A program made the position numbers and the translations under genes. A model generated the notes under the pieces. The model worked only from the letters and a program-made list of their open reading frames with translations. It was not told the origin of the DNA and searched no databases. From the NCBI GenBank assembly GCA_029261055.1, contig JAJDCA010000014.1:5295-69294 (forward strand): DNA of 64,000 bases, read 5' to 3'. Of this stretch, positions 863 to 19,299 are shown piece after piece. Source of the DNA: Candidatus Omnitrophota bacterium. Lineage in GTDB: Bacteria; Omnitrophota; Gorgyraeia; Zapsychrales; Zapsychraceae. Within the stretch, counting starts at the first letter, position 1, and each line of letters begins with the position of its first letter.

Positions 863-1741
863 ATGTACGAAATCCTCAATAAACAAATTCTTGCCGAAGA
901 TGTGAAACGTTTGGATGTTTCGGCTCCTAATATTGCCAAGAAAATCCAGCCCGGTCAGTTTGTGAGTGTTTCTCCCGAGGAGGGAGATGAGCACATTCCT
1001 CTAAGTATTGTGGACACAGATCCTCAAAAAGGTGTTATTTCACTTATTTTTCAGGAAGTGGGTTTGACCACGGGCAAGTTGGGAACCCTTCCGATTAATG
1101 AATCCATTTTTTCGATTCTCGGACCTCTGGGAGTGCCGTCAAAAATTGACAAGAAAGGTGTTGTTGTATGTGTAGCGACGGGCGTGGGATCTGCTCAGAT
1201 TTTGCCGATATGCCGTGCGTACCGAAAAGCCGGCAATAAAGTGATCGGTATTATTGGGGCGAAGACGAAACGATCGCTGCTGCTGGAAGCCCAGATGCGG
1301 CTGTCATGTAATAAATTGTTAATTGCGACAAATGATGGTACGTATGAACGTCGTGGATTGGCTACAGATATTCTTAAAGAAATCGTGGCCCAACAAAAAA
1401 TAAATTTTGTGTATGCGATTGGATCGGTCGATATGATGCAGGCCGTGTGTGTATTTACGAAAGAAAAGAAAATTAAGACACGTGTGTATTTGAACCCGGT
1501 GATGGTGGATTGTATGGGGATGTGTGGATCTTGTCGGGTCAAGGTAGGTGGAAAGATTTTGTTGGCCTGTATTGAAGGTCCGGAATTTGACGGACATAAA
1601 GTAGATTTTCAGTATTTTAATATTCGGATGAAAGCTTTTGAGGAGTTAGATAGATGGGACAACCAGAAGGGGCTCTCCAGCCCAAAGAAAAGCGAGTCAG
1701 GAATTTTAACGAGGTTTCTCTCGGGTATTCTAAGAAAATAA
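863..1741 (+). CDS. nfnA: PyrK-like FAD/NAD(P)-binding, 2Fe-2S electron-transfer subunit (NfnA / sulfide dehydrogenase SudB-like)
   Basis: 292 aa. Ferredoxin-reductase-type FAD/NAD fold and a C-terminal Cys cluster (CMGMCGSC). Immediately followed by a GltD-like partner. Confidence 0.65.
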   Translation: MYEILNKQILAEDVKRLDVSAPNIAKKIQPGQFVSVSPEEGDEHIPLSIVDTDPQKGVISLIFQEVGLTTGKLGTLPINESIFSILGPLGVPSKIDKKGVVVCVATGVGSAQILPICRAYRKAGNKVIGIIGAKTKRSLLLEAQMRLSCNKLLIATNDGTYERRGLATDILKEIVAQQKINFVYAIGSVDMMQAVCVFTKEKKIKTRVYLNPVMVDCMGMCGSCRVKVGGKILLACIEGPEFDGHKVDFQYFNIRMKAFEELDRWDNQKGLSSPKKSESGILTRFLSGILRK

Positions 1742-3015
1742 GCACCGAAGAAGCTCGTCGTTGTCCGCAATGTGCCGATGCGGTATGTACAGCAGCGTGC
1801 CCTATTGGTGTGGATGTGCCTGGGTTTGTGCGTTTTCTTCGTGAGGGAAATTTGTCTGCCGCTTATGAACGCATAAAAGAACAAAATTGTCTGCCTGCAG
1901 TGTGCGGCCGGATTTGTTCCGCCCCGTGTGAAGCCGCCTGTGTATTGATGGAGGAAGAATCTCCGATTGGGGTGCGTGCCTTGGAGCGTTATGCCGCAGA
2001 TTTTGGAAAACCGCGTCTTTCCCGACGGGAACGTGTAGAGCGCAAAGGAAAAAAAGTGGCCGTGGTTGGTTCCGGTCCGGCAGGGTTAGCCGCTTCTGCA
2101 GATTTAGCCCGCAAGGGTTATCAGGTGACCATTTTTGAGGCTCTTGAAAAACCCGGCGGTGTTTTGCGTTATGGCATACCGGAATTTCGCATTCCACGGA
2201 AGGTGTTAGATGGGGAGATTAATGACATTAAAGCCCTGGGCGTTAATATTGAAACGAATTTTTTTATTGGGCAAACCGCTACCGTCGCTGATCTTAAAGA
2301 GCAAGGCTATGCCGCAATTCTTTTAACGACTGGCGCAGGAATTCCTCAATTTATGGATCTTCCCGGCACAAATTTTGGTGGAGTGTATTACGGCGAAGAA
2401 TTTTTGATGCGTGTGAATTTGATGAAGGTGAATATTTTTTCGCGCAATATTCCTAATTTTGTGATTGGTCCTAAAGTTGTCGTAATCGGGTCCGGCAATA
2501 CGGCTTTAGATTGTGCCAGGGCCAGCGTACGTTTTGGCCGGGAGGTAAAGCTGATTTTTCGTCGTACTGAAGAAGATATGCGTGTCCGACCGCAAGAACG
2601 TGAATATGGCAAAGAAGAAGGGATTCAGTTGGAGCCGCTCGTCCGTCCTGTCGAAATTCTAGCAGATCAGAATAATTTTGTAAGTGGTGTTAAATGTGTG
2701 CGTATGGATTATGCTGAAGCAGAAGAGAGTGATGCGTGGGAGCTCATGCCTGTTCCCGATTCTGAATTTATTATTGAGGCCGACACCGTGATTATCGCCA
2801 TCGGACATAAGCCCAATTCCATCATTAAGCGAACAACACCGCAGCTAAAATGTGACCCCGATGAAACCATTAAGGTTGATTCTGATACCCACATGACCGC
2901 CATCAAGGGCGTCTTTTCTGCAGGAAATGTCGTCACCAACGCCGGCCCTTTAGTTGAAGCCATTGCTTCAGGAAAAAGCGTCGCGGAAGACATTCATCAG
3001 TATTTGACAAAATAA
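1654..3015 (+). CDS. nfnB: GltD-like NADPH-dependent FAD oxidoreductase with two N-terminal [4Fe-4S] motifs (NfnB / SudA-like)
   Basis: CPQCADAVCTAACP and CGRICSAPCEAAC cluster motifs. GSGPAGLAAS dinucleotide-binding motif and a second Rossmann GxGxxA. The N-terminal region KRVRNFNEVSLGYS matches the family start, implying an 88-nt overlap with the upstream gene. Confidence 0.75.
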   Translation: MGQPEGALQPKEKRVRNFNEVSLGYSKKISTEEARRCPQCADAVCTAACPIGVDVPGFVRFLREGNLSAAYERIKEQNCLPAVCGRICSAPCEAACVLMEEESPIGVRALERYAADFGKPRLSRRERVERKGKKVAVVGSGPAGLAASADLARKGYQVTIFEALEKPGGVLRYGIPEFRIPRKVLDGEINDIKALGVNIETNFFIGQTATVADLKEQGYAAILLTTGAGIPQFMDLPGTNFGGVYYGEEFLMRVNLMKVNIFSRNIPNFVIGPKVVVIGSGNTALDCARASVRFGREVKLIFRRTEEDMRVRPQEREYGKEEGIQLEPLVRPVEILADQNNFVSGVKCVRMDYAEAEESDAWELMPVPDSEFIIEADTVIIAIGHKPNSIIKRTTPQLKCDPDETIKVDSDTHMTAIKGVFSAGNVVTNAGPLVEAIASGKSVAEDIHQYLTK

Positions 3016-3101
3016 CAGGCCTTCGGTAATTCTAAAACAGAAAGTGTGGACATTGTGTGTACTTTATGTTATCCTTTAATTAAGGAAAGGAGCTTAAAGT
3101 T

Positions 3102-3389
3102 ATGGAAAAAAATATTTACAAAGACAGTCGGATTGATCTTCGCATAGAGGTGGATCAAAAGAAATTTTTAGTTTACGCAGCATCTCTTCGTGATATGAAG
3201 CTTTCATCCTTTGTTGTGGCCAGCGCTTTAAAAGAGGCTGAAGAAATTGTGGCAGATAAAATTTCTTTTGCATTACCGGAAAAAAAATGGAAGGCCTTCT
3301 GTGCCGCGCTTGATCGTCCTGCGCGTACGATTCCAAAATTGAAAAAACTTTTTACTGATCCGAGTGTGTTTGATGCGGAAAAAGAATGA
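3102..3389 (+). CDS. DUF1778-type (TacA/AtaR-like) antitoxin
   Basis: 95 aa, preceded by a GGAAAGGAG ribosome-binding site. Overlaps the start of a GNAT toxin gene, the classic TacAT arrangement. Confidence 0.6.
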   Translation: MEKNIYKDSRIDLRIEVDQKKFLVYAASLRDMKLSSFVVASALKEAEEIVADKISFALPEKKWKAFCAALDRPARTIPKLKKLFTDPSVFDAEKE

Positions 3390-4055: not shown

Positions 4056-4166
4056 ATTATCTGAACAAGAAAACGTTTTTTCTACAAAATTATGCCAATA
4101 ACCTGCCTTCCTATCGTCAGGCAGCCACGCCACGGATTGGTTGAATTTATCAATATTGGAGGAAAT

Positions 4167-7100
4167 ATGAGCATTTTTATAAAAAAACAACGCTTTTGTC
4201 TATTTTATAGGCTTTTATCTGCATTTATTGCCGTGGCATTCGTAACCACAACAATTATTCCGCGAGGATATGCAAATACAATGATTAATGGTCAGGGGTC
4301 AGTGCTCAGTCTTCCGATTCCCGGTACGATGGTCACGGCAAGTGAGGCGTTTGTGCCTACGCTGATTAAAGGGATTACGATTCATCCGGAGAATCCGTTA
4401 CAGTTCAATTTTATTGTAGATACGGGAAATACGGGCATGCAGCAAGGGAAGGTGCTTGAAGATGAAACGACCAAATTGGTGAAATATTTTTTGGCGGCAC
4501 TTACGGTACCGGAACAAGAGATGTGGGTCAACTTGAGTCCGTACGAAGAGAATCGTATTATTGCCGATGGCTTGGGCGATACTGAGTTAGGACGCGATAT
4601 GCTCGCGCAGGATTATTTGCTCAAACAATTGACTTCTTCTTTGATGTATCCGGAAGACGAATTAGGTGAAAGATTTTGGGATCGCGTGTATGCCCGTGCG
4701 CAAGAAGAATTCGGAACGACGGACATTCCGATGAATACGTTTAACAAGGTGTGGATTGTACCGGAGAAGGCTGTGGTGTTTGAGGACGAGAAGACATCGA
4801 GTACGTATGTGTTGGAGAGTCATTTGAAGGTGATGTTGGAGGAGGACTATGTTACGATGGAACATAATACGGATCGTAGGGGTCTGATTCATCAAACCCA
4901 GGACAAGGGCATGATAAATCATGCCCCTACGGATATCATCCGCGAAATCCTCATTCCCGAAATCGAACGCGAAGTCAACCACGGAAAAACCTTCGCCAAT
5001 CTCCGTCAAATTTACAATTCCATGATTTTAGCGACGTGGTACAAACAAAATCTCAAACAATCCCTTTTAGGGCAAGTTTACATCGACCAAAATAAAACCA
5101 AAGGCATCGACACCGAAGACAAAAAAATTACCCAAAAAATCTACAACCAATACGTCGAATCCTTCCAAAAAGGCGTCTACGACTACATCAAAGAAGATTA
5201 TGATCCCGTCACCCAGCAAATCGTTCCGAGAAAATATTTCTCGGGAGGATTATTAGGACCAGTTACATCAAATCCTGATTTTTCAATGGTTGTTTTAACA
5301 AATACGAAAGATATCGATAGAAGTTTGTTAGGTAAAAATCCGCAGTTTAGTGCTTTGTTTAATTTGGCAGATTTAGGGGGTGAGTCCAAAAGCATATTAG
5401 AAATCACACAAGCGGTCAATAATGCAACAATGATCGATAAGTATATGGTTAAGGAAAAAGTGTTGGATAAAGACGAAGCCATGACAGTGAAAGATGTATC
5501 GATGATGACGAAAAAAAAGGATGGAATAAAAAAAGTAATAAAAAGGGGAGAGATAAGAAACTTTCTTTTTTCCTTATTAGCAATTCCGTTGTTTTTTTCG
5601 ATTTTTATTCCTCCTGTAATTATTGTGCAGATGTTTGTTTCTGTAAATGATATGATGTCTCCTAATCCTTTTTTTCAAATAGAATCAGTGCAAACTAATA
5701 ATAGGCTAGAAGTACAAAATCCGTTTTCAGAAGATCTATTTAAGAAGACTATTAACGATTTGGAAAAATTTTTTCGGAGCGATAAGTCTGCAAATAAAGA
5801 ATTGAAATTCATGAAAATTAGTGAGTTTGTTGCACAATTGAAGTTTGCGCTACGAGATAATGTTAATCTTGATAATTTGAGTTGGGACATGGAGGATATT
5901 AACGAACCTCTTGTAACAGATAAAGATATATTTAACAATATTGCAAAGAGTACATCTAAATGGTTGGAAAATGCTAATGAGGAAACTCAAAAGAGGATAA
6001 TAAATCAACTTTTAGACGTTGAGGATCTTCATTATAGTAGTAAGTATAATTTTTTTAGGTCAATTGGGGGATACCTTAGAAAGCACGATCATGCCATGCT
6101 GGTCGCTCCCGAGATACGGTCAACGGTTAAGTTTCTTACGGAGACGATTGGTGAAGATGTGATGCTCGCGGATGTGCGTTTGCTTGATCAATTGAAAGCA
6201 ATAGAGAATGATGAAGAGTATCAGAATGAAGGCGGTCGTAAGAATTCCACAGGACGTGCGATTCATGACTTTATTGATGATTTAGAAAAAAAATTTGATA
6301 AGAATATGGATGTAATAAAAATGAACGAATTGGGTATTAATGTTGATGATGAAAAAAAGAAACTTGAGAATTGGCGCAATACGTTTCATAAGAAATATTA
6401 TGTTAATCAACGTATTGGATATGCAGGTATTTCGGAAGGAGAAAAGAAAAGTGCTATGAAGGTTATTAATGAAGTAAGTAGATCTTTAATAAAGAAATTC
6501 TTTAACCAATATATTGTTAAAAAGGGTAATAAGCTGATTAACACTAGGTTCTCAGCATCACAAGATCATACAATTCAACCTGAAAAATGGCATTCAGGTG
6601 GGTGGAGTGTAAAAGATAATTTCATTGGTGTTCCTCTCGCCATTGGTTCTTTGATTGCCTTGGAAAGAGAATACAAAAAGGGGGTGTATCGTGACATCAA
6701 TAACACTGGACAGGAGGTTGTCAACTTGGTGTTAGAAGAGTTTTATCAAATCAGACGATCAGAACGTGCTTCTGATTTGAGTAATGTGATTGGTCAAGTT
6801 TTGAATACGTACCGTAGGTATCAAAATTCGACAAATTCGATTGGTCAAGAAATTAAAGAAGATGCTGTTAATGATTTTCGGGATTTAGGAATAGATGAGA
6901 GTGAAATCAGGGAGTTGATCAAATCCAAAGATTCCTTCGGTGCCAAAATGTTGTACATAGCGAAACGTATCCTTTCGGATAATGTAAAAACAGACGAACA
7001 GGCTATTCAACATGCGATTAATGGGCTATCGATACCAGAGCTTGATATTCTTGATGAATTTATTGATGGTGTAGAAACGAAAGTTACAAAAGAAGATCCC

Positions 7101-8639
7101 GTATCTTTAGCAGATGTTTTAAATAAGGTTAGAGAAAAATTGGTTTATAAGTCAATCGTAAGGCCTAGGAAGCGTAATTATAGCATAATCATATCCGAAG
7201 ATTATGATTACGGATCTACTGACACGGATTCAGAGCTCAAAGAACGATTGATACGCCTCAATACAAAAAAAATGATCGCTGACAGGAAAAAAGAGTTAGG
7301 AGATAAGGCTATGGTGGCGGAAATGAAGGATATTGATAAGTTTCAGAAAGTCAGGGGTATTAATCTGGATGCTTCGATGATGGATGATGAAAGTTTGCGT
7401 AAAGAGATTAAGGTTGCTCTTGTGAATATGGATGAGCATATAAAAAAATGGGAAGGTGCGAAAAATGAGTTTCTTGAAACTTTAAATAAAATTTTGTATG
7501 AATATAGGGAGTATTCTGAAATAGAAAATAAGCTTGAGGGAGGTCTTTCAGAAAATGATGAGAAAAAGCAATATGATGTGAAGGATAGCGAAGAAAGTAT
7601 TTCTTTTTCACTAGGAATTAGTGACCAAATTAGGCTGGCGGTTGAAAGATTTTCCAACATAGTTTGGGATAAAGAAATAAAACAATATAATAGGGCAAAA
7701 CTTTGGGAAGGTGATGAGTCTCAAGGTGAGACTAATGAAGAAGAAATTGATAGAGTTCGTCAAGATGTGATAGAAATAACGCATATTGGTATTCAGGAAA
7801 TTATTAATAATATTTTAAAAGACCTGAGTAGTGAAGGTAAAGTTTTGAATTTAATAGAGCATTATTCTATTGTCGAGAAAGTATTAAATAATTTGATAAG
7901 TGAGGAGCCTACATTGAATGATGAGGTAGATTGGATAAATGTGGCATTAAGGGCTATTAATCGATTTAAAGAGATGACACAAAGATTAACGGTTGTTGAT
8001 CAAAATCTTAATATTTCAGGGGAGTCGGTTAACGATTCTGAAAAATATATTAATGAAAATGTGCTGGGACTTAAAAGGGATGCGAATACGTATATTTTGA
8101 AGATGTATTTAAAGTTTATGGGGATTGAAATAACAACCAATGCAGAATTATTTAATGAAGATGTAGATAGTTTTGGAAAGGGGCTTCTTGATTCATTGTT
8201 TAATGCTCTTAACGATAAAGATCATCCTATTAATAATGAAGGTTTTGGTCCATTTGATGATGGTATTGATTTAGAAGATGACGATTCTAATTTAGAAGAT
8301 GATCCTGATGTGGGTGATGATTCAATGATCACGCAAACTGTTAATCATATAAATAACCCTGGAGGTATCAACCTTGACGCGGCGATGTTGGATTTGCAGA
8401 TTAGGCGGGATGGGAATGGGGTGCCGTTGCCGGTTGCGGAGCAGGATTTTTCAACAATGCATATTGAAGGGTTTTTGCCGATTATGATAGATATGGCACC
8501 GGTGAGCATTCCTATGCTGCTCGGTTTCGCGGATGAAGATGGCGGCGTGCCGGTGACCGGTTGTCCTTCGGATGAAGAGGGAATCAATTGCAACCACGAT
8601 TTCATTTTAACCAAGCAGGAAGACGAGATATTTTTGTAA
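4167..8639 (+). CDS. giant secreted / membrane-anchored protein, paralog 1 (1490 aa from the ATG at 4167 with a GGAGG ribosome-binding site)
   Basis: Strong RBS plus an N-terminal hydrophobic signal or anchor. A ~330-aa N-terminal domain is shared with the protein at 13647-17357. An internal 28-aa hydrophobic segment, a long K/E/D-rich low-complexity core and an acidic D/E run follow. The C-terminal ~60-aa motif (GGINLD..LDLQ..HIEGFLP..PV) is shared with the paralog. Confidence 0.8.
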   Translation: MSIFIKKQRFCLFYRLLSAFIAVAFVTTTIIPRGYANTMINGQGSVLSLPIPGTMVTASEAFVPTLIKGITIHPENPLQFNFIVDTGNTGMQQGKVLEDETTKLVKYFLAALTVPEQEMWVNLSPYEENRIIADGLGDTELGRDMLAQDYLLKQLTSSLMYPEDELGERFWDRVYARAQEEFGTTDIPMNTFNKVWIVPEKAVVFEDEKTSSTYVLESHLKVMLEEDYVTMEHNTDRRGLIHQTQDKGMINHAPTDIIREILIPEIEREVNHGKTFANLRQIYNSMILATWYKQNLKQSLLGQVYIDQNKTKGIDTEDKKITQKIYNQYVESFQKGVYDYIKEDYDPVTQQIVPRKYFSGGLLGPVTSNPDFSMVVLTNTKDIDRSLLGKNPQFSALFNLADLGGESKSILEITQAVNNATMIDKYMVKEKVLDKDEAMTVKDVSMMTKKKDGIKKVIKRGEIRNFLFSLLAIPLFFSIFIPPVIIVQMFVSVNDMMSPNPFFQIESVQTNNRLEVQNPFSEDLFKKTINDLEKFFRSDKSANKELKFMKISEFVAQLKFALRDNVNLDNLSWDMEDINEPLVTDKDIFNNIAKSTSKWLENANEETQKRIINQLLDVEDLHYSSKYNFFRSIGGYLRKHDHAMLVAPEIRSTVKFLTETIGEDVMLADVRLLDQLKAIENDEEYQNEGGRKNSTGRAIHDFIDDLEKKFDKNMDVIKMNELGINVDDEKKKLENWRNTFHKKYYVNQRIGYAGISEGEKKSAMKVINEVSRSLIKKFFNQYIVKKGNKLINTRFSASQDHTIQPEKWHSGGWSVKDNFIGVPLAIGSLIALEREYKKGVYRDINNTGQEVVNLVLEEFYQIRRSERASDLSNVIGQVLNTYRRYQNSTNSIGQEIKEDAVNDFRDLGIDESEIRELIKSKDSFGAKMLYIAKRILSDNVKTDEQAIQHAINGLSIPELDILDEFIDGVETKVTKEDPVSLADVLNKVREKLVYKSIVRPRKRNYSIIISEDYDYGSTDTDSELKERLIRLNTKKMIADRKKELGDKAMVAEMKDIDKFQKVRGINLDASMMDDESLRKEIKVALVNMDEHIKKWEGAKNEFLETLNKILYEYREYSEIENKLEGGLSENDEKKQYDVKDSEESISFSLGISDQIRLAVERFSNIVWDKEIKQYNRAKLWEGDESQGETNEEEIDRVRQDVIEITHIGIQEIINNILKDLSSEGKVLNLIEHYSIVEKVLNNLISEEPTLNDEVDWINVALRAINRFKEMTQRLTVVDQNLNISGESVNDSEKYINENVLGLKRDANTYILKMYLKFMGIEITTNAELFNEDVDSFGKGLLDSLFNALNDKDHPINNEGFGPFDDGIDLEDDDSNLEDDPDVGDDSMITQTVNHINNPGGINLDAAMLDLQIRRDGNGVPLPVAEQDFSTMHIEGFLPIMIDMAPVSIPMLLGFADEDGGVPVTGCPSDEEGINCNHDFILTKQEDEIFL

Positions 8640-8692
8640 ATTGACATTTTGGTAATTTTTTGTAGAATGAGCTATACTTAAGTTGAGGTGAC

Positions 8693-8893
8693 ATGATGAA
8701 ATTTAAAAATATGACAGAAATATTTACGGTATATGAAAATCAGTGGGTTGCGCTAACTGATGACGACAAAATTATTGCTTCTGCAGATACTTTAGAATCT
8801 GTTTTAGAAAAGGCCTCTAAAAAAGGATATGATACTCCCCTCACTGCAAAAATCCCCGACTCTAAACACGAGTTTGTTTTATGTCATCTTTAA
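8693..8893 (+). CDS. small 66-aa protein of the kind found paired with retropepsin-like proteases (possibly DUF5678-like, family name from memory only)
   Basis: Its stop overlaps the start of the downstream protease gene. Ribosome-binding site GAGGTG. Confidence 0.45.
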   Translation: MMKFKNMTEIFTVYENQWVALTDDDKIIASADTLESVLEKASKKGYDTPLTAKIPDSKHEFVLCHL

Positions 8894-9357
8894 AAGTTCC
8901 CTATACGCGGGTTTCCACTAATTTCAATCTTTCAATGTTTAAATTTAAGAATCAACCTCTTTTAAAGGTTGGTCTTTTAGGTCAAAATAATCAATGCATT
9001 AGAGCCACGGCGTATATTGACACAGGGGCTCAAGTATGTCTTTTTAATAAAGATTATGCTACTTTTTTGGGTATAAAAAATTACAAAGATACAGAAGAAA
9101 GTATTCCCTTAACTGGTATTGGTGGGAAAAAACCTGAAAATGTGGCCTATTTTCATAGTCTAACGTTGGTTGTTTTTAAAAATCAAAAAAAATTAGAAAT
9201 AAAGAATGCATATAAAATTCAGACAAAAATAGGTTTTTTGGAAAAAGAAATAGGGTTTGCTGGGATATTAGGTGTTTATGGATTTTTGGATCAATTCTCA
9301 TTTTTAGCTAATATCCCGGAACACTATTTTGAATTAACACCGAAGTTTGTAGCTTAG
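8881..9357 (+). CDS. retropepsin-like (clan AA) aspartic protease
   Basis: YIDTGAQ active-site motif (hydrophobic-hydrophobic-D-T-G-A). ~160 aa, typical of single-domain bacterial retropepsins. Confidence 0.65.
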   Translation: MSSLKVPYTRVSTNFNLSMFKFKNQPLLKVGLLGQNNQCIRATAYIDTGAQVCLFNKDYATFLGIKNYKDTEESIPLTGIGGKKPENVAYFHSLTLVVFKNQKKLEIKNAYKIQTKIGFLEKEIGFAGILGVYGFLDQFSFLANIPEHYFELTPKFVA

Positions 9358-9398: not shown

Positions 9399-10253
9399 AT
9401 GGCACACATGCAGAAGATATCCGTAGCACACATCCAAAATAAAAAAGTTAAGCAAGAGAAAATCACGATGCTGACGGCGTATGATTATCCGATGGGGGTG
9501 TTGTTGGATAAAGCCGGGGTGGATATGGTGTTGGTGGGGGATTCTGTGGCCAATGTGGTTTTGGGGCTTGAATCGACCACAGAGGTGGGGATGTTTGAGA
9601 TGTTGCATCATGCCAAGGCGGTCCGTCGTGGAGTCAAAGAGGCTCTTTTGATAGGGGACATGCCGTATGAATCTTATCAAACAGCTACACAAGATGCCGT
9701 GGCCAATGCCAAACGTTTTGTGGATGAAGCGGGATGTGATGCGGTGAAATTAGAATGGTTTGACCGTTGTATTGAGGTGGCGGCTGATATTGTTCAGGCG
9801 GGCATTCCGGTGATGGGGCATGTGGGGTTAACACCTCAGACAGCTGAGCAATTAGGGGGGTTTAAAGTTCAGGGGAAGGATGCGGATTCTGCGAAGATTA
9901 TTATCGGGAATGCAAAGGCGTTGGAGGAAGCAGGGTGTTTTAGTATTGTTTTGGAGTGTGTTCCGGATAAAATTGCGCAATTAATTACAAAGCAATTATC
10001 CATTCCAACGATCGGGATTGGGGCTGGCCTTTATTGTGACGGACAGGTTCTGGTGACACACGATCTTTTAGGTTTGTTTGATCGTTTTCGTCCAAAATTT
10101 TCTAAACAGTATGTGGATTTAGGGGCCGCGGTTGTTGACGGTGTAAAGAATTTTTGTCAAGAGGTCCGTCAGGGTAAATTCCCCGATGAAGTGCATAGTT
10201 ATTCGATCAAACAAGAGGAATTATCTAAGATAAACGGAGGTGATCTTGTATGA
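9399..10253 (+). CDS. panB: 3-methyl-2-oxobutanoate hydroxymethyltransferase
   Basis: [18 protein letters not shown] and GHVGLTPQ motifs, all characteristic of PanB. Confidence 0.85.
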
Positions 10254-10588
10254 AAAAATGTCCTTTTTGTGCGGAAGAAATTCAAGATCAAGCTATTAAA
10301 TGTCGGTTTTGTGGTGAATTTTTGAATAAAGATAAAGAAGCACCTGTACATGAAAAACCAAAATGGTTTTTTAAGACATCCAGTTTGGTTGTTGGTTTTT
10401 TATTTGTGGGGCCTTTTATTTTACCCGTGATTTGGTTTAACCCGCGGTTTTCAACGATGAAAAAAATTATTTTTAGTCTCATTGTTTTTATTGTTTCTAT
10501 AATTCTTTTAAAAATACTGATGATGAGTTTCGAATCGATCAATGAATACTATGAAATTTTTCAGGATATGAATCAAGCAAGGAGTTAG
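10250..10588 (+). CDS. zinc-ribbon (CPFC..CRFC) membrane protein, hypothetical
   Basis: N-terminal CxxC-x9-CxxC motif followed by two hydrophobic helices. Confidence 0.45.
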
Positions 10589-10593
10589 TACCT

Positions 10594-11451
10594 ATGGAAA
10601 ATATTGTAGAAAATAAAACACAAGATGTGGGGATTGAATGGCAGAAAGTCGATGGGTTTACGGATATCACATATCATAAAGCCGACGGTATTGCAAAAAT
10701 TACAATTAATCGACCTGAGGTACGCAATGCCTTTCGTCCTTTGACGGTGCACGAAATGTCAGAAGCTTTGGCTGATGCGCGCGATGATGAAGATATTGGG
10801 GCGATTATTTTAACAGGTGAAGGTGAGAAAGCTTTTTGTTCTGGAGGGGATCAAAAAATTCGTGGCGAAGCCGGATACAAAGATCATAAATCTGGAAATA
10901 AAAATCGATTAAATGTGTTGGATTTTCAGCGACAGATGCGTACGTGTCCGAAACCAATTATTGCGATGGTGGCTGGGTATGCTGTGGGTGGCGGTCACGT
11001 TTTGCATTTATTGTGTGATATCACAATTGCTGCCGACAATGCGATCTTTGGACAAACTGGCCCGAAGGTGGGGTCATTTGACGGTGGTTACGGCGCGAGT
11101 TACATGGCACGGATTGTTGGACAAAAGAAGGCGCGAGAAATTTGGTTTTTGTGTCGTCAGTACAGTGCCCAAGAAGCGTTAGATATGGGATTGGTGAACA
11201 AAGTTGTTCCTTATGCCGATTTAGAAAAAGAAACGGTTCAATGGTGCCGTGAAATTTTAGTTAATTCTCCGATGGCCATACGCTGCCTTAAAGCTGCACT
11301 TAATGCTGACTGCGACGGCCAAGCCGGTCTGCAAGAACTCGCGGGTAATGCCACGATGTTATTTTACATGACCGAAGAAGGCCAGGAAGGCCGCAATGCC
11401 TTTGTCGAAAAACGTAAACCGGATTTTAAAAAATTTCCACGAAGACCTTAA
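10594..11451 (+). CDS. menB: 1,4-dihydroxy-2-naphthoyl-CoA synthase (crotonase fold)
   Basis: Enoyl-CoA hydratase fold with FCSGGDQ and [11 protein letters not shown] motifs. Lies in a men gene neighbourhood. Confidence 0.85.
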
Positions 11452-11533
11452 CAGTCATCAGCTATCAGTCCTCAGCCTTCAGTATACTTTATTATTTACT
11501 GATGTCTGAAGTCTGATAGCTGACGGCTAAATA
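11452..11533. terminator. imperfect ~30-bp inverted repeat (long hairpin) downstream of menB
   Basis: GTCATCAGCTATCAGTCCTCAGCCTTCAGTA ... TACTGATGTCTGAAGTCTGATAGCTGAC. Confidence 0.35.
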
Positions 11534-11535
11534 TT

Positions 11536-12417
11536 ATGATTTCATCACTCAAACTTTGGTTTATGGCCATTCGGCCAAAAACATTAACCGCCGCCGTGGC
11601 GCCGGTGTTGATCGGCACGGCGATGGCTTTCGGCGATGGCATTCATCATTTGCCAACCGCTTTTCTTTGTCTTTTCGGCGCTATTCTTATTCAAATCGGT
11701 ACGAATTTGGCCAATGATTATTTCGATTTCAAAAAAGGGACGGACGACGTAGATCGTATCGGGCCGACGCGGGTTACGCAGGCAGGGCTGATTTCACCCG
11801 AAGTGGTGAAATTTGCCTTTATTTTGACATTTGTTCTATCGGCATTGGTGTGTATTGCATTGGTTATCCGTGGTGGTTGGCCGATTGCGGTGATCGGTAT
11901 TCTTTCGATTATTTCCGGCATTCTTTACACGGCAGGGCCGAAACCTTTAGGGTATATGGGGCTGGGAGATGTTTTTGTTTTTGTTTTCTTTGGTCCTGTG
12001 GCAGTCGCTGGAACGTATTATGTGCAATCCTTTGAAATGAATATGGCCGTCATCCTTGCCGGTGTGGCGCCGGGTTTAATTTCCGCCGGAATTTTAACCG
12101 TCAATAATTTGCGAGATATTGTTGGAGATAAAAAATCTGGTAAAAAAACGCTGGCTGTTCGTTTTGGTCGTTCGTTTGCACAGAGTGAATATTTGTTTTC
12201 GATGATTGCCGCCTCGCTGGTGCCGGTATTGATTTATGCTCTCATTCAGGATCATTTACCCATTTTAATGGGTACAGTCGTGAGTCTTTTGGCTATTCCT
12301 ATTATGAAAAAGGTTTTGGTTTCTACGGATGGCCCTGCGCTTAACCTTGCCTTAGCGAAAACCGGAAAATTATTATTAATTTACAGTGTGCTTTTTTCGA
12401 TAGGTTGGATTTTATGA
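11536..12417 (+). CDS. menA: 1,4-dihydroxy-2-naphthoate polyprenyltransferase (UbiA family)
   Basis: Multi-pass membrane protein with the NDYFD Asp-rich prenyltransferase motif. Confidence 0.8.
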   Translation: MISSLKLWFMAIRPKTLTAAVAPVLIGTAMAFGDGIHHLPTAFLCLFGAILIQIGTNLANDYFDFKKGTDDVDRIGPTRVTQAGLISPEVVKFAFILTFVLSALVCIALVIRGGWPIAVIGILSIISGILYTAGPKPLGYMGLGDVFVFVFFGPVAVAGTYYVQSFEMNMAVILAGVAPGLISAGILTVNNLRDIVGDKKSGKKTLAVRFGRSFAQSEYLFSMIAASLVPVLIYALIQDHLPILMGTVVSLLAIPIMKKVLVSTDGPALNLALAKTGKLLLIYSVLFSIGWIL

Positions 12418-13490
12418 AAATCATTTCTTTTCAAACCTACAGATACGTTTTGCCTTTTGTGAATCCGATATCTGTGCGAGGTGTTAAGCTTTCGCAGAGG
12501 GAGGGGCTGATTATTCATTGCACGTCAGAACAAGGTATTGAAGGTTTTGGCGAGGCGGCCCCCTTACCGGGATTAAGTGAAGAAAGTTTAGAAGATGTTA
12601 TTGAAGAAGTCGAAATGTTTGAAAGTGTTTTGTTAGATCAGGATGTTCCAAAAAATATTGAAAAGTTTGAAGGCGCTTTGACAGAATGGCTTTCCGCATA
12701 TTCGCTTAGTCCATCGTTACAGTTTGCTATCGAAACGGCCATGTTAAATTTGATGGCGAATAGTCGTAAGATTCTTTTAAGTCAGCTATTCGAAGAATCC
12801 CCAGTAGAGAACATTAGTGTTAATGGTTTATTACAAGGGACAATGGATGAGGTTGTTTTACAAGCGAAGGCATGTTTGTTAAATGGATTTACCGCCATGA
12901 AATTAAAGGTTGGTCGAAAAGATATGGATGAAGATATTCGTAATGTTCAGGCGGTATCAGAAATTATTAGAGATAAAGCTTTGTTACATTTGGATGCGAA
13001 TCAGGCTTGGACATTAAAGGAAGCCGTTAAGTTTGGGCAAGCTATCGGTTGCGCGTGTGTGGATTATATTGAAGAGCCATTACAAGATGTGGCAGGGATA
13101 CCAGAATTTTTTCATCAGACATTAATCCCTGCGGCTTTGGATGAATCATTACAGAATTTAGATATTAAAGATGTTGGTTCGATCGAAGGGGCTGATGTTG
13201 TAGTTGTTAAACCTACTATTTTGGGCGGCATTGAAAAAACTTACCATCTTATCAAATATGCCAGAGAACGTGCTTTACGGTGTGTTGTCAGTTCCTCATT
13301 TGAATCTTCCATTGGAGTTACTACTTTAGCGCATTTGGCCGCAAGCCTCACACCTCGCACCGCAGCTGGATTAGATACCTTAAAATTCTTTCAAAAAGAT
13401 GTCTTGAAAAAAGGTGTTTTTATTCAAAAAGGTAAGATTCCTCTTTCTCAATGCCGGGTCCGGAAAGAAAATGTCCAAATCAATGTTTAA
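12405..13490 (+). CDS. menC: o-succinylbenzoate synthase (enolase superfamily)
   Basis: MKLKVG...LDANQAW...IEEP catalytic Lys/Asp/Glu pattern of the MR/MLE family. Sits in men context. Confidence 0.75.
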   Translation: MDFMKIISFQTYRYVLPFVNPISVRGVKLSQREGLIIHCTSEQGIEGFGEAAPLPGLSEESLEDVIEEVEMFESVLLDQDVPKNIEKFEGALTEWLSAYSLSPSLQFAIETAMLNLMANSRKILLSQLFEESPVENISVNGLLQGTMDEVVLQAKACLLNGFTAMKLKVGRKDMDEDIRNVQAVSEIIRDKALLHLDANQAWTLKEAVKFGQAIGCACVDYIEEPLQDVAGIPEFFHQTLIPAALDESLQNLDIKDVGSIEGADVVVVKPTILGGIEKTYHLIKYARERALRCVVSSSFESSIGVTTLAHLAASLTPRTAAGLDTLKFFQKDVLKKGVFIQKGKIPLSQCRVRKENVQINV

Positions 13491-13628
13491 ATATAAAATA
13501 TTTATTTATGAAGATATTCTTGCCGTTGTGCGCTGAATACGTTTTCTCTTACCATTTTTTCAGCGTCATGAATTAATCTTACCAAGTCTTATTCTAATAA
13601 AAATATATTTTTGGCAGGGTAGTAAGGA

Positions 13629-13644
13629 ATATGTTATCTTTTCC
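13629..13644 (+). promoter_or_regulatory. conserved 16-mer AATATGTTATCTTTTC (extended -10-like), identical to 4040-4055
   Basis: Exact repeat seen upstream of both giant paralogs. Here it abuts the annotated ATG (13647), so the true start is probably downstream (ATG 13659). Confidence 0.5.
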
Positions 13645-13646
13645 AT

Positions 13647-16600
13647 ATGAAGTCGATTATGCGGAGTATTTTTTATTTTATTATTTATGTAATACTGTTA
13701 ACTTTTGGGATGACGACATGTTTTCCTTCAGGGGTAAGCTGTGCTCAGGATGTTTCAAGTTATCCTGTTGAATTAGGCTTGCCGCCTATTGGGCAAAGTC
13801 TTTCTTTAAGTCCTCTCTATGTGCCGCCATTGTTCAAAGGGTTAATGGTTTATCCTCAAGAGCCTTTTCGTTTTGATTTTATTATGGACACTGGGCATGC
13901 AGGTTTATTGCCTGATGAAAAAGCTACAGAAGGGGAAAAGTTGATGCGTTATTTTCTTGCAGCTTTGACTATTCCTGAGGATGAACTGTGGGTCAACCTT
14001 TCGCCGTACGAGGCAGATCGGATTATTCCTGATGCATTGGGTGTGACAGAAATGGGGCGGGATATGCTGGCGCAGGATTATTTACTCAAACAGTTGACGG
14101 CATCATTGATGAATCCTGAAGAAGAGTTAGGGGGAGAATTTTGGGATAGGGTGCACACACAGGCTTATGCACAGTACGGGGTGACGAATATTGACATGAA
14201 CATGTTTCATAAAATTTGGATTGTGCCGGAGAAGGCATTAGTTTATGAAAATACAGGGCAGGTATTTATTTTGGAGTCAAAGTTGAATGTTATGTTGGAG
14301 GAGGATTACAAGGCATTGAACAACAATAATCCCAATGCCGAGTCCCGAGCAACCCTTGGTGAAAATCAGTTGCGAGGGATCTCTACTAAAATTATCCGTG
14401 AAATTCTCATTCCCGCAATCAAACAAGAAATCAACCACGGCCAAACCTTCGCCCCTTTACGCCAAATTTATCATTCCATGATTCTCGCCACGTGGTACAA
14501 GCAGGCATTACAAGAAAGCCTGATTAATCAATCCTATTCCAATCAAAAAAAGACATTGGGTGTGGATATTGAAGATAAAGACGTTAAAGATAAAATTTAT
14601 CAGCAATACATTGCAGCCTTCAAGCAAGGAGTGTCTGACATTATCAGAGAAGATTATGATCCAGTCACCCAGGAAATTATTCCGCGAAAATATTTCTCTG
14701 GTGGGTTGATCGGAAAAGTTAAATTTATCGCAACCAACGATGCCTCCCAACTCACTACTGCCCAAGCCGTAGGCGACTGGGCACTTTTAGCAGGAGATGT
14801 ACAGCTTCGTAATTATTTAGAAATAGATTTAGGTGTGTCGGTGAATAAAATTAATACAGATGAGTATGTAAAAATACTTAATGATAAAGTATTTCAGAAT
14901 GTAGCAGCATTACTTGAGCAGAATAAATTTAGTCAAGCAAAGAAATTACTGTCTGTAGTCAGGAAAGGTTATGAAGAAATTAAACAGGTTAATCAAAATG
15001 CTGCGGTGGGAAGTCTTAATTATAAACGAGCAAAGATTGTTGAGTTGAATAGTAAGCATGTTGAGAATTTGATTCATGATATTGTTAGAGATGAATCGAA
15101 TATTGGTTTTTTATCTATTGATTATGAAGTTCGTAATCTTTTAAAAGTTTTTTTTGAGGAATATAATATTACAGAAGATGGGTTTAGGTTTTTTTTAGAT
15201 CATGTTTTACATGGAATGAGTATAGGCGATCTTAAAGAACGAATAGAAAAATTCTTTTTATGGGGGAATGCGAAAGTAACGGATGAAAAATTATCAAAAG
15301 AACTTGCCCAAAAGATATGGAATTTAGATTTTGAAGGGGGCGTAGGCCTAGAAACGTTTCCTGAGCGATCACGATTTGGTGAGAAAATTATTTTAAATCT
15401 TATTCAAAAATTGATGGATATTAATAAGCAGGAGTTAAATGTTGGAATTATTGGGGGGGGATGGTTTCCTGATAATGGGATGCCTTTTTCTAATGGACCA
15501 ATTATTACAGGAAAAATGGCTTACCGAATTGGGGAAATATGTTCTGCTTGTAGAGTTAGCGGGTTAGATATTTTTTTTCCTGTTGAAAAAGTTGAAGATT
15601 CTATAGGAAATATTCTTTTGGTAGATAAGGACGGATATTATGTTTCTGTGCAGGGGTCGAATATTTTAATAGAACCGTTTCTTGATATGCAAAAACGGTT
15701 GTTAAAAAAGAGAAAAATACTTTTAGCGATGCGGCAAGCTTCAGGAGATAATCCAGAGGTTTATGTGGTTGAAAAAAATGAAGGTTTGATTGAAGCAGGA
15801 GATCGTATAGTAAGAAATCCTCTTGATCGATATGTAGAAAGATTTCATGATGTTAATCGAGGTGGTCAAGGGGTTAAATTGAAGAATTTACATTTTCAGA
15901 GAGCAGGAAAAAATTTTGAGTTGTACAGTGAAAAGAAATTTGATGGGATATATACAGCTAATACGGGTTGGAGAAATTTGCCTGAAACGTATTTGGATGG
16001 TATGCAAAAATGGGGAAAGAAAATTAAAAAGGGAGGTTTTTTAGTAAGTGAAATTAATTTTCCAAAGGGGTTCCCTCTTGTTGTAGGTGAATTCCAAAAA
16101 GGAGAAGATGAGTTGTCTTTAATGAAACTCCATTTTTCTATGTGGGATTATTATTCAATTATTTCATCTGGAAGAATTTTTGATAGTAAAGATGCTTTTG
16201 ATCATATCGTCGAGACGAAATATCGTAATATTCTTATGGAGGTTTGGAAAAAATTGATCAATATTAAAGGTGGGGATTTAACAATAATAGGAGCGGACCT
16301 TACTGAAGAGTTTATTGATAATGTAAAAGTTGAATTAAACGGCTTAGCCGCCGTCCACATTGCCGATGCGGAGGAGGGGCGGGAAGGGCATTTGGTGGTG
16401 ACGATTGATTTTGATAAGTCAATGATGGGGGGGGATAACTCTGGGCGTAAAAAAAATAAACGGACTGTTTTTGTGGAAACATTGGTTAAGAAGTGGATAA
16501 AGAAAAATAAGGGTAAGAGAATAAGAAAAATTCCTATAAGTGGTGCAGCATTAGGAGGGATTGTGATGCTCAGTAAAGAGACTGCGCTTAAAGCTGTTAA

Positions 16601-17357
16601 ATATTCTAGTGATGGAAAAGTTGAAACAACATATAAACCGGCATTGCTTGATGAATATGATTTTTTGGTATTTATGAAAAAAATTTTAAATGAGTCCCCA
16701 GGTGCGTATCAGAGTGTGGAATTCTTAAAGGTTAGGATAAATTTAAAAAATAAATTTGATAATATCATAGATAAAATTCGGAAAGTAGAAGAGGAAAATA
16801 GTAATAAAAAATTAAAAGGAAAGAAAAGAATTGGAGGGCAGCCCGGTTATAACAAAATGGCATTGGATGATTTTGTGGCATATACAAGAAAAAGGAAGAA
16901 ACATCTCGATACATTTCCAATTAAATCAATAGAATTGCAATTTTTATTTGGTTTTCCTAAAAGGGAGAATATTTCAACATATCGCTCTCGATATTTAGGT
17001 GGGCTTATTATAAAGGAGCCTCTGGACAAAAATGACAAGATAAATTTTTTAAAGTTAATTCGTAGATGGGCAAAAAAATATGAAGGGGAAAATGAAATTA
17101 TTAAAGAAATGCCTGGGAAAATTAACGTTATGCTAAAAGATTTTGCGGCTTTGGCTTTACCTCAGCAAGGTGGAGTTGATTTTAATCCGCAATATTTGGA
17201 TTTACAAAGGCAAGGGAATAGGATAGATTCAGCTGTACTGACAGAAGGCCTGACGCAAGGTCAGATTCATTTTGATGGTTTGGAGCCTGTGGTTTTACGC
17301 GTTTTGCCGGTGACGGATATTGTGGGGTTGTTTGAGGCTTCAGGAGTTATGTGGTAA
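13647..17357 (+). CDS. giant secreted protein, paralog 2 (1236 aa)
   Basis: N-terminal signal peptide. The ~330-aa N-terminal domain is ~55-60% identical to paralog 1, with ~80% nucleotide-identity tracts. The core is divergent, and the C-terminal motif (GGVDFN..LDLQ..HFDGLEP..PV) is shared. Confidence 0.8.
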   Translation: MKSIMRSIFYFIIYVILLTFGMTTCFPSGVSCAQDVSSYPVELGLPPIGQSLSLSPLYVPPLFKGLMVYPQEPFRFDFIMDTGHAGLLPDEKATEGEKLMRYFLAALTIPEDELWVNLSPYEADRIIPDALGVTEMGRDMLAQDYLLKQLTASLMNPEEELGGEFWDRVHTQAYAQYGVTNIDMNMFHKIWIVPEKALVYENTGQVFILESKLNVMLEEDYKALNNNNPNAESRATLGENQLRGISTKIIREILIPAIKQEINHGQTFAPLRQIYHSMILATWYKQALQESLINQSYSNQKKTLGVDIEDKDVKDKIYQQYIAAFKQGVSDIIREDYDPVTQEIIPRKYFSGGLIGKVKFIATNDASQLTTAQAVGDWALLAGDVQLRNYLEIDLGVSVNKINTDEYVKILNDKVFQNVAALLEQNKFSQAKKLLSVVRKGYEEIKQVNQNAAVGSLNYKRAKIVELNSKHVENLIHDIVRDESNIGFLSIDYEVRNLLKVFFEEYNITEDGFRFFLDHVLHGMSIGDLKERIEKFFLWGNAKVTDEKLSKELAQKIWNLDFEGGVGLETFPERSRFGEKIILNLIQKLMDINKQELNVGIIGGGWFPDNGMPFSNGPIITGKMAYRIGEICSACRVSGLDIFFPVEKVEDSIGNILLVDKDGYYVSVQGSNILIEPFLDMQKRLLKKRKILLAMRQASGDNPEVYVVEKNEGLIEAGDRIVRNPLDRYVERFHDVNRGGQGVKLKNLHFQRAGKNFELYSEKKFDGIYTANTGWRNLPETYLDGMQKWGKKIKKGGFLVSEINFPKGFPLVVGEFQKGEDELSLMKLHFSMWDYYSIISSGRIFDSKDAFDHIVETKYRNILMEVWKKLINIKGGDLTIIGADLTEEFIDNVKVELNGLAAVHIADAEEGREGHLVVTIDFDKSMMGGDNSGRKKNKRTVFVETLVKKWIKKNKGKRIRKIPISGAALGGIVMLSKETALKAVKYSSDGKVETTYKPALLDEYDFLVFMKKILNESPGAYQSVEFLKVRINLKNKFDNIIDKIRKVEEENSNKKLKGKKRIGGQPGYNKMALDDFVAYTRKRKKHLDTFPIKSIELQFLFGFPKRENISTYRSRYLGGLIIKEPLDKNDKINFLKLIRRWAKKYEGENEIIKEMPGKINVMLKDFAALALPQQGGVDFNPQYLDLQRQGNRIDSAVLTEGLTQGQIHFDGLEPVVLRVLPVTDIVGLFEASGVMW

Positions 17358-17440: not shown

Positions 17441-17659
17441 ATGTATAAGTCCAGTATTGTGAATGATATTCTTCAAAGAGCTTCTTCATTATCTCTGGAG
17501 GAGCAAAATTTTATTGTGGAGACGCTTAATAAGCGTATTCATGAGTATCGGAGAAATAAAATTGTACGACGGGTGAAGGAGGCTGAAAAGAATTACGGTA
17601 AAGGGAATGTAAGCAAAGGTAAGGTTAGTGATTTAATGAGTGAGTTAGATGATGATTAG
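17441..17659 (+). CDS. putative antitoxin (72 aa)
   Basis: AGGGAGG ribosome-binding site. Overlaps by 11 nt with a RelE/YafQ-like toxin gene. Confidence 0.45.
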   Translation: MYKSSIVNDILQRASSLSLEEQNFIVETLNKRIHEYRRNKIVRRVKEAEKNYGKGNVSKGKVSDLMSELDDD

Positions 17660-17921
17660 TCTAATTTGGGATGCCGCGTTTATTCGGATTCTTAAAAAAT
17701 GGAAGAAAAAACATCCGCATTTAATTAAAACTTTCCAAGAAGTGCTCTCTGAATTTGTTAAAAATCCTTTTCAACCTTCCCTACGAACACACTGTTTGAG
17801 TGGTAAGTTAAAAGACTGTTGGGCTTGTAGTATTACTTACGAATATCGCGTAGTATTTAAATTTATTTCCAAGAATAAAGTGCTGCTTATCGATATTGGA
17901 ACGCATGACGAAGTATACTAA
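17649..17921 (+). CDS. RelE/YafQ-family type II toxin (mRNA interferase)
   Basis: C-terminal HCLSGKLKDCWACSITYEYRVVFKF..LLIDIGTHDEVY matches the YafQ/RelE signature. Confidence 0.65.
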   Translation: MMISLIWDAAFIRILKKWKKKHPHLIKTFQEVLSEFVKNPFQPSLRTHCLSGKLKDCWACSITYEYRVVFKFISKNKVLLIDIGTHDEVY

Positions 17922-19299
17922 TTATCCTCCGCAGGTTTGTTTTAAAATCCAATCAAATAAAATCTTTATTATTTGCGGGCAGCAAATTGTAACATATGCG
18001 CAGTTTTTTGATGCTGTTGGTGGTGTGATTGATTATTTTCAATCAAGCGGAATTAAGTCTAAAGATCGTGTTGGAATTTGCTGCGCTAATAGTGTTGAGT
18101 ACGTGGCAGCATTAATAGCCCTGTGGCGTATTGGCACTGTCGCTTGTCTTTTGAGTCCGCGCTTACCACAGGAGGCGTTGCAGCAGCAATGTAGCAATTT
18201 GAGTTGTCAGAATGTTTTAACGAGCTTTCCTGAAGTGCCCTATTCAGATAAATTAACAGAAACAAATCCAAAATGGTCTTTGCCGGTAGATCAAGAGGCT
18301 ACGATTATGTTTACCTCCGGCAGTAGTGCCTCGCCCAAAGCGGTTTTGCATACGATTGGTAATCATTATTTCAGTGCCAAGGGCGCGAATGTTCATATTC
18401 CGTTAGTCGCTGGGGATCGATGGTTATTAACGCTTCCATTGCATCACGTCGGGGGTTTAAGTATTTTATTTCGTGCACTTTTGGCCGGGGCAACACTGGT
18501 TATTCCCGAGAAAGATGAGCCTATTGAGGCGGCAATACGGCGCTACGGCATTACGCATGTATCGATGGTGCCGACGCAGATTTATCGTTTATTAGGGGAA
18601 AATGAAGAAGGTGATTTAAAAAGTTTGAAGGCGATTCTTGTCGGCGGAGGGCCGATACCGGAAGCCCTTTTACAAAAAGCAATGGAAAAAGGTTTCCCGG
18701 TTCATACGACGTACGGCTTAACAGAAATGGCTTCGCAAGTTGCCACGTCAAACGTGTTGACGTCGGAAACTATTTCAAATGGCGGTAGAGTGTTGGAGGA
18801 TAGAGAAGTAAATGTTTCTGAAGAAGGTGAAATTTTAGTGCGTGGCAAGACGCTTTTTCAAGGTTATGTAGAAGGCGGGCACATTGATTGTTCGTTTGAC
18901 GCAGGCGGTTGGTTCGCAACCGGTGATTTAGGTGAGCTCAACGACGAAGGTTATTTAAAAGTGACTGGACGTAAAGATAATATGTTTATCTCCGGTGGCG
19001 AAAATATTCAGCCGGAAGAAATTGAACGGCATTTGTGTCGGTTAGAAGGCGTTGAGGAGGCTATCGTCATTCCCGTAGAACATGCGGAATTTGGCTTTCG
19101 CCCGGTGGCGTTTATAAAGTACATGAATGGAAAATCAATAACCTCCGAAGAAATCAAAAGAACTCTGCAACAATATCTCCCTAAATTCAAAATTCCCGAT
19201 ACCTTTTACGATTGGCCGGAAGGCATTATTAGTGAGGGGATTAAGCCAAGTCGGCTAGTATTTAAGCATTATCTTGAGCGAACAATTCCACGATCTTAG
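17896..19299 (+). CDS. menE: o-succinylbenzoate-CoA ligase (adenylate-forming enzyme)
   Basis: AMP-binding motifs TSGSSASPK, YGLTE and GDLG, in men context. The start is uncertain (17896 or 17905). Confidence 0.75.
   Translation: MERMTKYTNYPPQVCFKIQSNKIFIICGQQIVTYAQFFDAVGGVIDYFQSSGIKSKDRVGICCANSVEYVAALIALWRIGTVACLLSPRLPQEALQQQCSNLSCQNVLTSFPEVPYSDKLTETNPKWSLPVDQEATIMFTSGSSASPKAVLHTIGNHYFSAKGANVHIPLVAGDRWLLTLPLHHVGGLSILFRALLAGATLVIPEKDEPIEAAIRRYGITHVSMVPTQIYRLLGENEEGDLKSLKAILVGGGPIPEALLQKAMEKGFPVHTTYGLTEMASQVATSNVLTSETISNGGRVLEDREVNVSEEGEILVRGKTLFQGYVEGGHIDCSFDAGGWFATGDLGELNDEGYLKVTGRKDNMFISGGENIQPEEIERHLCRLEGVEEAIVIPVEHAEFGFRPVAFIKYMNGKSITSEEIKRTLQQYLPKFKIPDTFYDWPEGIISEGIKPSRLVFKHYLERTIPRS

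Follow-up and report, generated by a model that had tools for sequence, protein, structure and literature searches.

A DUF5678 protein and a divergent retropepsin form a near-obligate gene pair with toxin-antitoxin-like architecture in Candidatus Omnitrophota

What is the role of a small protein whose gene runs into that of a free-standing bacterial retropepsin? A 64,000-nucleotide stretch of a Candidatus Omnitrophota genome (GenBank GCA_029261055.1, contig JAJDCA010000014.1, positions 5,295 to 69,294; here called the window) encodes such a pair, a protein of 66 amino acids (aa) and a retropepsin-like aspartic protease of 158 aa (Table 1). A sequence-only reading of this DNA had described the two open reading frames (ORFs), their 13-nt overlap and the catalytic motif YIDTGAQ, and all of these were found exactly as given. 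It had considered a toxin-antitoxin-like pair of inhibitor and protease, a dedicated substrate or a chaperone. Here, the small protein is assigned to the family DUF5678 and its pairing with the protease is followed across genomes. The pairing is near-obligate and not due to chance, and the two genes almost certainly constitute a genuine functional unit. A module in which DUF5678 inhibits the protease by placing its C-terminal tail in the substrate cleft is possible and is put forward tentatively.

Sampling via the protease used protease-derived patterns on one genome per GTDB species. The scan yielded 16 loci of a first clade (clade A), 14 of them in metagenome-assembled genomes (MAGs) of Candidatus Omnitrophota and two in MAGs labelled Planctomycetota/Planctomycetia. 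All 14 loci with upstream DNA have a same-strand DUF5678 ORF of 61-73 aa directly upstream, and its stop codon overlaps or abuts the protease ATG. Three further divergent proteases, looked up individually, likewise have DUF5678 upstream. A second clade (clade B) was sampled via DUF5678 and comprises 80 metagenome loci with the tail ...MPxxLxxY[VI]G.... 40 diverse DUF5678 representatives gave an alignment that was too divergent for this locus scan, and a closer subset (A6) worked. Between the clades, identity is about 34% for DUF5678 and about 25% for the protease. Directly downstream of the clade-B small gene, 61 loci encode a full-length protein of 129-142 aa with LVDSGAD, GVGG and GIVGQKGFF motifs. 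DSGAD is invariant. These proteins pass the Asp_protease_2 threshold (30.8 bits) and match the profile of the window family with E-values of 1e-16 to 1e-7. Another 13 loci have a truncated, frameshifted, deleted or contig-cut protease copy, two lack downstream sequence and four have no protease or marginal traces.

Co-occurrence of the pair, proposed as a check by the sequence-only reading, amounted to 18/18 loci in the protease-first sampling of clade A, including the window, and to 74/78 assessable loci in clade B. The small ORF is located beside the retropepsin essentially everywhere, which supports the two-gene module of the sequence-only reading. The identities of the partners correlate (r 0.89, 61 pairs); within clade B, the correlation is 0.64 compared with a maximum of 0.22 in 200 partner permutations. 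The presence of the pair in two clades together with this correlation indicates that the genes were inherited as one unit. At several loci the protease is truncated or missing and the small gene is intact. An intact protease without the small gene was absent from the protease-first sampling, which is small in numbers and biased. Fusions of a full-length DUF5678 with a full-length protease were absent among the loci and homologues examined. Tandem modules in the order small gene, protease, small gene, protease are present in L065, L067 and L069 (about 1663..3122), and the second protease of L069 is split by a frameshift or stop.

The junction of the two genes is compact. A 4-nt ATGA or a 1-nt TAATG overlap is the norm in the family. 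In the window, TGT is present where the relatives have the stop codon TGA; this adds three residues (CHL) to the small protein and creates the 13-nt overlap, which is read as a likely sign of translational coupling. Relative to the small gene, most loci have the protease in the -1 frame, as would suit a Gag-Pro-like arrangement with frameshifting in the overlap and autoprocessing of a DUF5678-protease fusion as in retroviruses. The coupling overlaps ATGA and TAATG yield the -1 frame anyway, however, and the frame is +1 or 0 at L012, L015, L070 and L075. The window junction has no in-frame X_XXY_YYZ slippery heptamer, and an ATG and N-terminus of its own are conserved in the protease. On these grounds programmed frameshifting was rejected; it is extremely improbable.

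A profile search of the small protein, again suggested by the earlier reading, identified Pfam DUF5678 (PF18929) with 45.8 bits at a cut-off of 23.2, and the match spans positions 3-48 of the 49-position model. Searched as a single sequence, the small protein retrieved nothing but itself, and an alignment of locus-derived sequences was needed to reach relatives. The relatives' profile retrieved 320 close homologues of 57-91 aa, every one annotated just as DUF5678. In 1.84 billion proteins, it found 857 cluster representatives (50% identity), nearly all stand-alone and 57-90 aa long. The score above the cut-off and the many homologues establish the small ORF as a real gene. The fold consists of an alpha1-beta1-beta2-alpha2-beta3 core (residues 7-53), followed by a disordered C-terminal tail. 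Literature searches found no papers giving DUF5678 a function.

Some family members deviate from this layout. P0271 (187 aa) and P0329 (210 aa) have two tandem DUF5678 domains and other tails (...PFGGW, ...HIIWA). In P0337 (80 aa), the DUF5678 core is joined straight to ...DFGHGLLGQNGFF, the motif at the C-terminus of clade-B proteases. This has the appearance of a module remnant left by a deletion rather than of a functional fusion. P0246 (1166 aa) has eleven short profile matches, restricted to positions 19-36, and is highly repetitive with repeats such as ...NALVVKFDSNLNILARK...; this match is most likely spurious and driven by the repeats. The '...VGG' tails of clade B invited a ubiquitin-like reading, which was rejected because the core lacks a beta-grasp fold and Gly is absent in clade A.

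The protease belongs to a family of 85 homologues with 47-64% identity and a length of ~158 aa. The catalytic Asp, named beforehand as the residue on which the assignment hinged, is invariant. The catalytic motif aligns to the DTGA of Ddi1 and of the proteases (PRs) of the human and feline immunodeficiency viruses (HIV, FIV), and the GIGG flap to the GVG/GIGG flap of Ddi1 and FIV PR. L130, G131, V132, Y133, G134, F135 and D137 are invariant across the family, and the segment I129-L130-G131 would correspond to I84-I85-G86 of HIV. The window protease scored below the Pfam gathering thresholds, with 19.2 vs 24.3 bits for PF13650 and 18.5 vs 20.7 bits for RVP. Asp_protease_2, gag-asp and RVP each matched with an E-value of about 2e-3 and NCBIfam clan_AA_DTGA with 0.17. 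A profile search of the Protein Data Bank (PDB) found the Ddi1 retropepsin domain (E 0.005) with DTGAQ and the flap glycines aligned. The AlphaFold2 (AF2) model of the monomer reached a predicted local distance difference test score of 91.8 and a predicted template modelling score of 0.86. It has the one-lobe retropepsin fold with flap hairpin and psi-psi-G motif, which bore out the earlier description as a single-domain retropepsin. Since a hydrophobic N-terminal stretch is missing, the protease is presumed to be cytoplasmic. Motifs and model characterise it as a genuine but divergent retropepsin with intact active-site motifs and as a superfamily-level member of clan AA. It represents a new divergent subfamily of the clan AA retropepsin-like peptidases.

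The genomic context of the module varies by locus: the flanks include GroEL/IMPDH, gyrA, polA, SecY, tRNA synthetases and others. The 150 flanking ORFs matched 168 Pfam families, each in three loci at most and mostly with housekeeping functions. A recurrent third gene, a RimK-like ligase or an enrichment of defence genes was not found among the flanks examined. In tblastn searches, the window protease, a clade-B protease and a tandem DUF5678 protein had no match in 72,556 plasmids, and the clade-B protease had none in 50,697 phages. Scans of IMG/VR with DUF5678 and protease alignments revealed no relatives, and PHROGs gave no hit. The module has no plasmid or phage association in the collections searched. 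It is a self-contained, patchily distributed chromosomal cassette, and horizontal mobility is proposed. The sole setting resembling a defence island is L101/L102 (1..6402), where the neighbours of a clade-A module are a restriction-modification system, with two DNA methyltransferases plus a PD-(D/E)XK protein, and, ~2.4 kb downstream, an MNT/HEPN (NTP_transf_2 + HepT) pair. The protease at this site (P0084, 133 aa) is without the flap region.

A role of DUF5678 as assembly factor, adaptor or activator, serving folding, dimerisation or substrate delivery of the protease, would leave unexplained the mobility, the missing functional context and why the protease often decays while the small gene stays intact. 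In the AF2 model, the protease monomer has a confident fold with no partner present. A helper function of this kind is quite unlikely.

The C-terminal tail bears on a direct contact. Its register is the same in both clades, P-x5-[FY]-[VI] followed by L in clade A and by G in clade B. The motif was present in 117/120 clade-A tails; 101 end with Leu and 115 with a hydrophobic residue, and exactly one residue follows [FY][VI] in 99 proteins. The window copy with its CHL extension is atypical, and Leu is again the last residue, as in the other extended copy L012. Clade-B tails run 2-8 residues beyond the [FY][VI] pair. Covariation was calculated as mutual information with average product correction on 48 non-identical clade-B pairs, a small sample for which the tail block was defined after the top list had been seen. 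Several tail columns rank among the top inter-protein couplings. The coupled protease columns are 96, 103 and 105 (V..P-Y-G-I-V-G), flap residues and the residue 3 before the catalytic Asp. Full shuffling reached the observed tail-block value in 0/300 cases. Columns 96, 103 and 105 probably correspond to P81-V82-N83-I84-I85-G86 of HIV-1 PR, the S1/S1' pocket loop. This equivalence relies on the psi-psi-G motif and on the alignment with FIV PR. P-Y-G-I-V-G and F-A-G-I-L-G are equated with HIV P81-G86 by motif and not by direct alignment, because hhalign of the protease family with HIV-1 PR aligned merely 11 columns around DTG. The covariation of tail columns with cleft-lining segments is suggestive of a tail-cleft contact.

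Such a contact is equally compatible with a substrate and an inhibitor. As a dedicated substrate or maturation partner, DUF5678 would be cut at or beside the [FY]-[VI] pair, with cleavage activating, inactivating or releasing it or a peptide; the two proteins would serve another cellular function. An aromatic followed by a beta-branched residue in an extended disordered tail suits the S1/S1' pockets of retropepsins, as in sites of HIV and FIV PR, and the longer clade-B tails would fill both sides of the scissile bond. In most clade-A proteins, however, the single residue after the pair is too short for the usual prime-side contacts. A tail that ends one residue past the aromatic/beta-branched pair resembles a non-prime-side cleavage product more than a substrate. 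No recurrent third gene is present to use a processed product, and a mobile, context-free pair is unexpected for a housekeeping maturation step. The substrate function is unlikely.

The inhibitor is favoured over substrate and assembly factor by the context-free, apparently mobile cassette without a downstream user of a processed product, by the product-like clade-A tail and by the asymmetric decay, in which the small gene is kept and the protease is lost. In the proposed mechanism, the upstream DUF5678 protein of 62-66 aa and the translationally coupled cytoplasmic retropepsin constitute a bicistronic module and would form a stoichiometric complex. The disordered tail would sit in the substrate cleft of the protease dimer, with the clade-A end ...[DE]-[FY]-[VI]-L-COOH acting as a product- or pseudo-substrate-like plug. 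DUF5678 would be the cognate, antitoxin-like inhibitor and the protease a latent, toxin-like effector. Depletion of the small protein would free the effector, as in type II toxin-antitoxin or abortive-infection logic. We infer the physical binding, the tail-in-cleft geometry, the inhibition, the toxicity and the trigger. Retropepsins are inhibited by product peptides of this kind; mature HIV PR is competitively inhibited by the free C-terminus of the upstream-encoded HIV transframe/p6* peptide, which would be directly analogous to the proposed tail plug. The variable context, the lack of a third partner and the loss of the protease where the small gene stays intact tip the evidence towards direct binding of the tail in the cleft and a self-contained toxin-antitoxin-like logic.

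Several observations weigh against an inhibitor and effector module. DUF5678 is without a DNA-binding or antitoxin-like fold: ribbon-helix-helix, helix-turn-helix, AbrB or Phd-like matches were found neither by sequence nor by fold, and no known DNA- or RNA-binding fold was recognised. Neither protein matched a known toxin or antitoxin family in Pfam, NCBIfam or PADLOC. The copy number of the module is low, and we know of no aspartic-protease toxin. A new toxin-antitoxin or abortive-infection class, composed of an HIV-protease-like toxin and an antitoxin with a product-mimicking tail in the cleft, is a doubtful though conceivable classification. The architecture itself was rated as toxin-antitoxin-like with an unprecedented effector class and partner.

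The upstream region bears on a further explanation. The promoter-like region with TTGACA at 8641 noted by the sequence-only reading is present as a consensus match only: TTGACA-16-TAGAAT agrees with the sigma-70-like consensus in 11/12 positions and is the best site of the region, in a scan with 8 sites seen vs 4.7 +/- 2.1 in shuffles. The upstream DNA of relatives' small genes has TTGAC-type and TATA(A/C)T-type hexamers and a GAGG Shine-Dalgarno sequence, and a leader ..TATACTTAA.TGAGGTG.. is common to the window, L010, L013 and L016. The second in-frame ATG at 8696 gives a 65-aa form of the small protein, as called in one public assembly. By its upstream position and small size, DUF5678 could be a mere regulator of transcription or translation of the protease gene without protein contact, and many clade-B small proteins are basic (mean isoelectric point 8.9). 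The window protein is acidic (5.2), however, no known nucleic acid-binding fold was recognised in it, and a comparison of promoter regions by eye revealed no conserved palindrome. The conserved free tail and its covariation with the protease would remain unexplained. A purely regulatory role is very improbable.

Table 1. Features of the module and its surroundings in the window
Feature	Position	Strand	Description
Giant ORF, first copy	4092..8639	+	1515 aa
Promoter-like site	8641..8668	+	-35 TTGACA 8641-8646, 16-nt spacer, -10 TAGAAT 8663-8668
Alternative promoter-like site	end at 8678	+	TTGGTA-18-TATACT
Shine-Dalgarno-like GAGGTG	8685..8690	+	precedes ATG 8693 or 8696
DUF5678 small-protein gene	8693..8893	+	66 aa; core and tail
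C-terminal tail	8852..8890	+	residues 54-66, IPDSKHEFVLCHL; motif P-x5-[FY]-[VI]-L; CHL extension in window copy
Overlap of small gene 3' end and protease start	8881..8893	+	13 nt
Retropepsin-like aspartic protease gene	8881..9357	+	158 aa
Catalytic Asp-Thr-Gly, D47-T48-G49	9019..9027	+	within YIDTGAQ; invariant 85/85
Flap-like G79-I80-G81-G82	9115..9126	+	G79, G81 and G82 at least 90% conserved
Third retropepsin motif, I129-L130-G131 ... D137	9265..9291	+	ILGVYGFLD; psi-psi-G motif, after S1/S1' pocket loop
panB	start at 9399	+	own promoter-like site
112-aa ORF	10250..10588	+	
menB-like ECH	10594..11451	+	
UbiA/menA	11536..12417	+	
menC	12405..13490	+	
Giant ORF, second copy	13647..17357	+	1236 aa
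Small ORF of second pair	17441..17659	+	72 aa
YafQ-family toxin gene (PF15738)	17649..17921	+	90 aa
menE-like AMP-ligase	17896..19299	+	

Among known enzymes, the window protease is structurally closest to APRc and the retroviral proteases. APRc (RC1339 of Rickettsia conorii; PDB 5c9b, 5c9f) is a bacterial retropepsin-like enzyme with about 15% identity to the window protease. It is the soluble part of a protein embedded in the membrane and has roles in autotransporter processing and immune evasion, as cited in PMC12239564. The window protease differs from it by the lack of a membrane segment and by its DUF5678 partner. The fold, DTGA, the G-x-G-G flap and the psi-psi-G motif are shared with the proteases of HIV-1, FIV and Rous sarcoma virus and with the RVP domain of Ddi1. 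In contrast to these systems, the module has no polyprotein, reverse transcriptase, integrase, ubiquitin-like or ubiquitin-associated domains. The window protease differs from the retroviral and Ddi1 enzymes in its length of 158 aa and in additional N- and C-terminal strands, and the upstream partner is a separate folded protein rather than a precursor segment as in retroviruses.

RimB, RloA, APRc and a few others are the only bacterial members of clan AA characterised so far (PMC12239564). RimB/RloA of Pseudomonas is likewise a clan AA enzyme in a small operon with a functional partner (PMC12239564), but the window pair has no adjacent ATP-grasp RimK-like ligase and its protease is outside the Zn_protease-type subfamily. 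The yeast proteinase A inhibitor IA3 (PDB 1dp5) is eukaryotic, unrelated in sequence and not operon-encoded; it targets a two-lobed pepsin-type enzyme and binds as a helix, whereas the DUF5678 tail is proposed to be extended. With type II toxin-antitoxin systems, the module shares a small upstream gene overlapping a ~130-160-aa downstream gene, an own promoter-like site and a patchy distribution. Like them, it also occurs in tandem copies and in variable contexts, and its downstream gene can decay while the upstream gene stays intact. The adjacent, co-directional, coupled small genes in variable contexts expected of these systems were found; a DNA-binding domain was not found in the small protein by sequence or fold. 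Component B of the PADLOC candidate PDC-M08 matched the window protease weakly (E 1.1e-7, 29.9 bits), and the small protein matched no PADLOC model at E up to 1. The weak match and the absence of DUF5678 from PADLOC models indicate that the pair is not PDC-M08. PDC-M08B and the Sulfolobales CRISPR-associated retropepsin (Saci_1895 group, PMC3973734) are also small stand-alone retropepsin-like proteins, located in multi-gene conflict or defence loci. PDC-M08 is itself a candidate system, and no cas genes are near the window module. Literature searches found no report on a DUF5678-retropepsin pair or a retropepsin-based toxin-antitoxin system.

Retropepsin and DUF5678 are now tied together as a near-obligate, co-evolving and presumably mobile pair of Omnitrophota and other uncultivated groundwater bacteria. 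If the small protein is the inhibitor of a protease effector, the module would add a new enzymatic class to toxin-antitoxin biology. Its toxin would be the first that is an aspartic protease, and its antitoxin the first endogenous protein of a prokaryote to inhibit a retropepsin. DUF5678, a family of at least 857 clusters at 50% identity, would obtain its first function. It would also be a natural protein scaffold for the inhibition of retropepsins and, in evolutionary terms, a parallel to the upstream-encoded peptides that inhibit retroviral proteases. If, instead, the small protein is a substrate, the pair would be a minimal protease-substrate system for studies of retropepsin specificity.

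The module directly follows a giant gene, as the sequence-only reading had stated. The giant ORF has a paralogue in the window with 50% identity in the N-terminal ~400 aa (E 1e-117) and a short C-terminal match; the 1236-aa copy is without a Pfam hit. Directly after each giant gene is a two-gene cassette, DUF5678/retropepsin after the first and a 72-aa/YafQ pair after the second. The latter pair also overlaps, its 72-aa protein has no Pfam hit, and it is probably a classical type II toxin-antitoxin module. This repetition of giant gene and small cassette is a circumstantial parallel to a toxin-antitoxin setting. From 9399 to 19299, panB and then a menaquinone gene set are encoded on one strand. 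The GC content of the module is 0.31-0.36 vs 0.45-0.50 for panB and menB. The menaquinone set is split by the 1236-aa ORF and the YafQ pair, which is located between this ORF and menE, and the inserted genes have a GC content below that of the biosynthetic genes. The 112-aa ORF shares a 4-nt overlap with the panB stop and has no Pfam hit; it combines an N-terminal CxxC...CxxC zinc-ribbon-like motif with subsequent hydrophobic segments.
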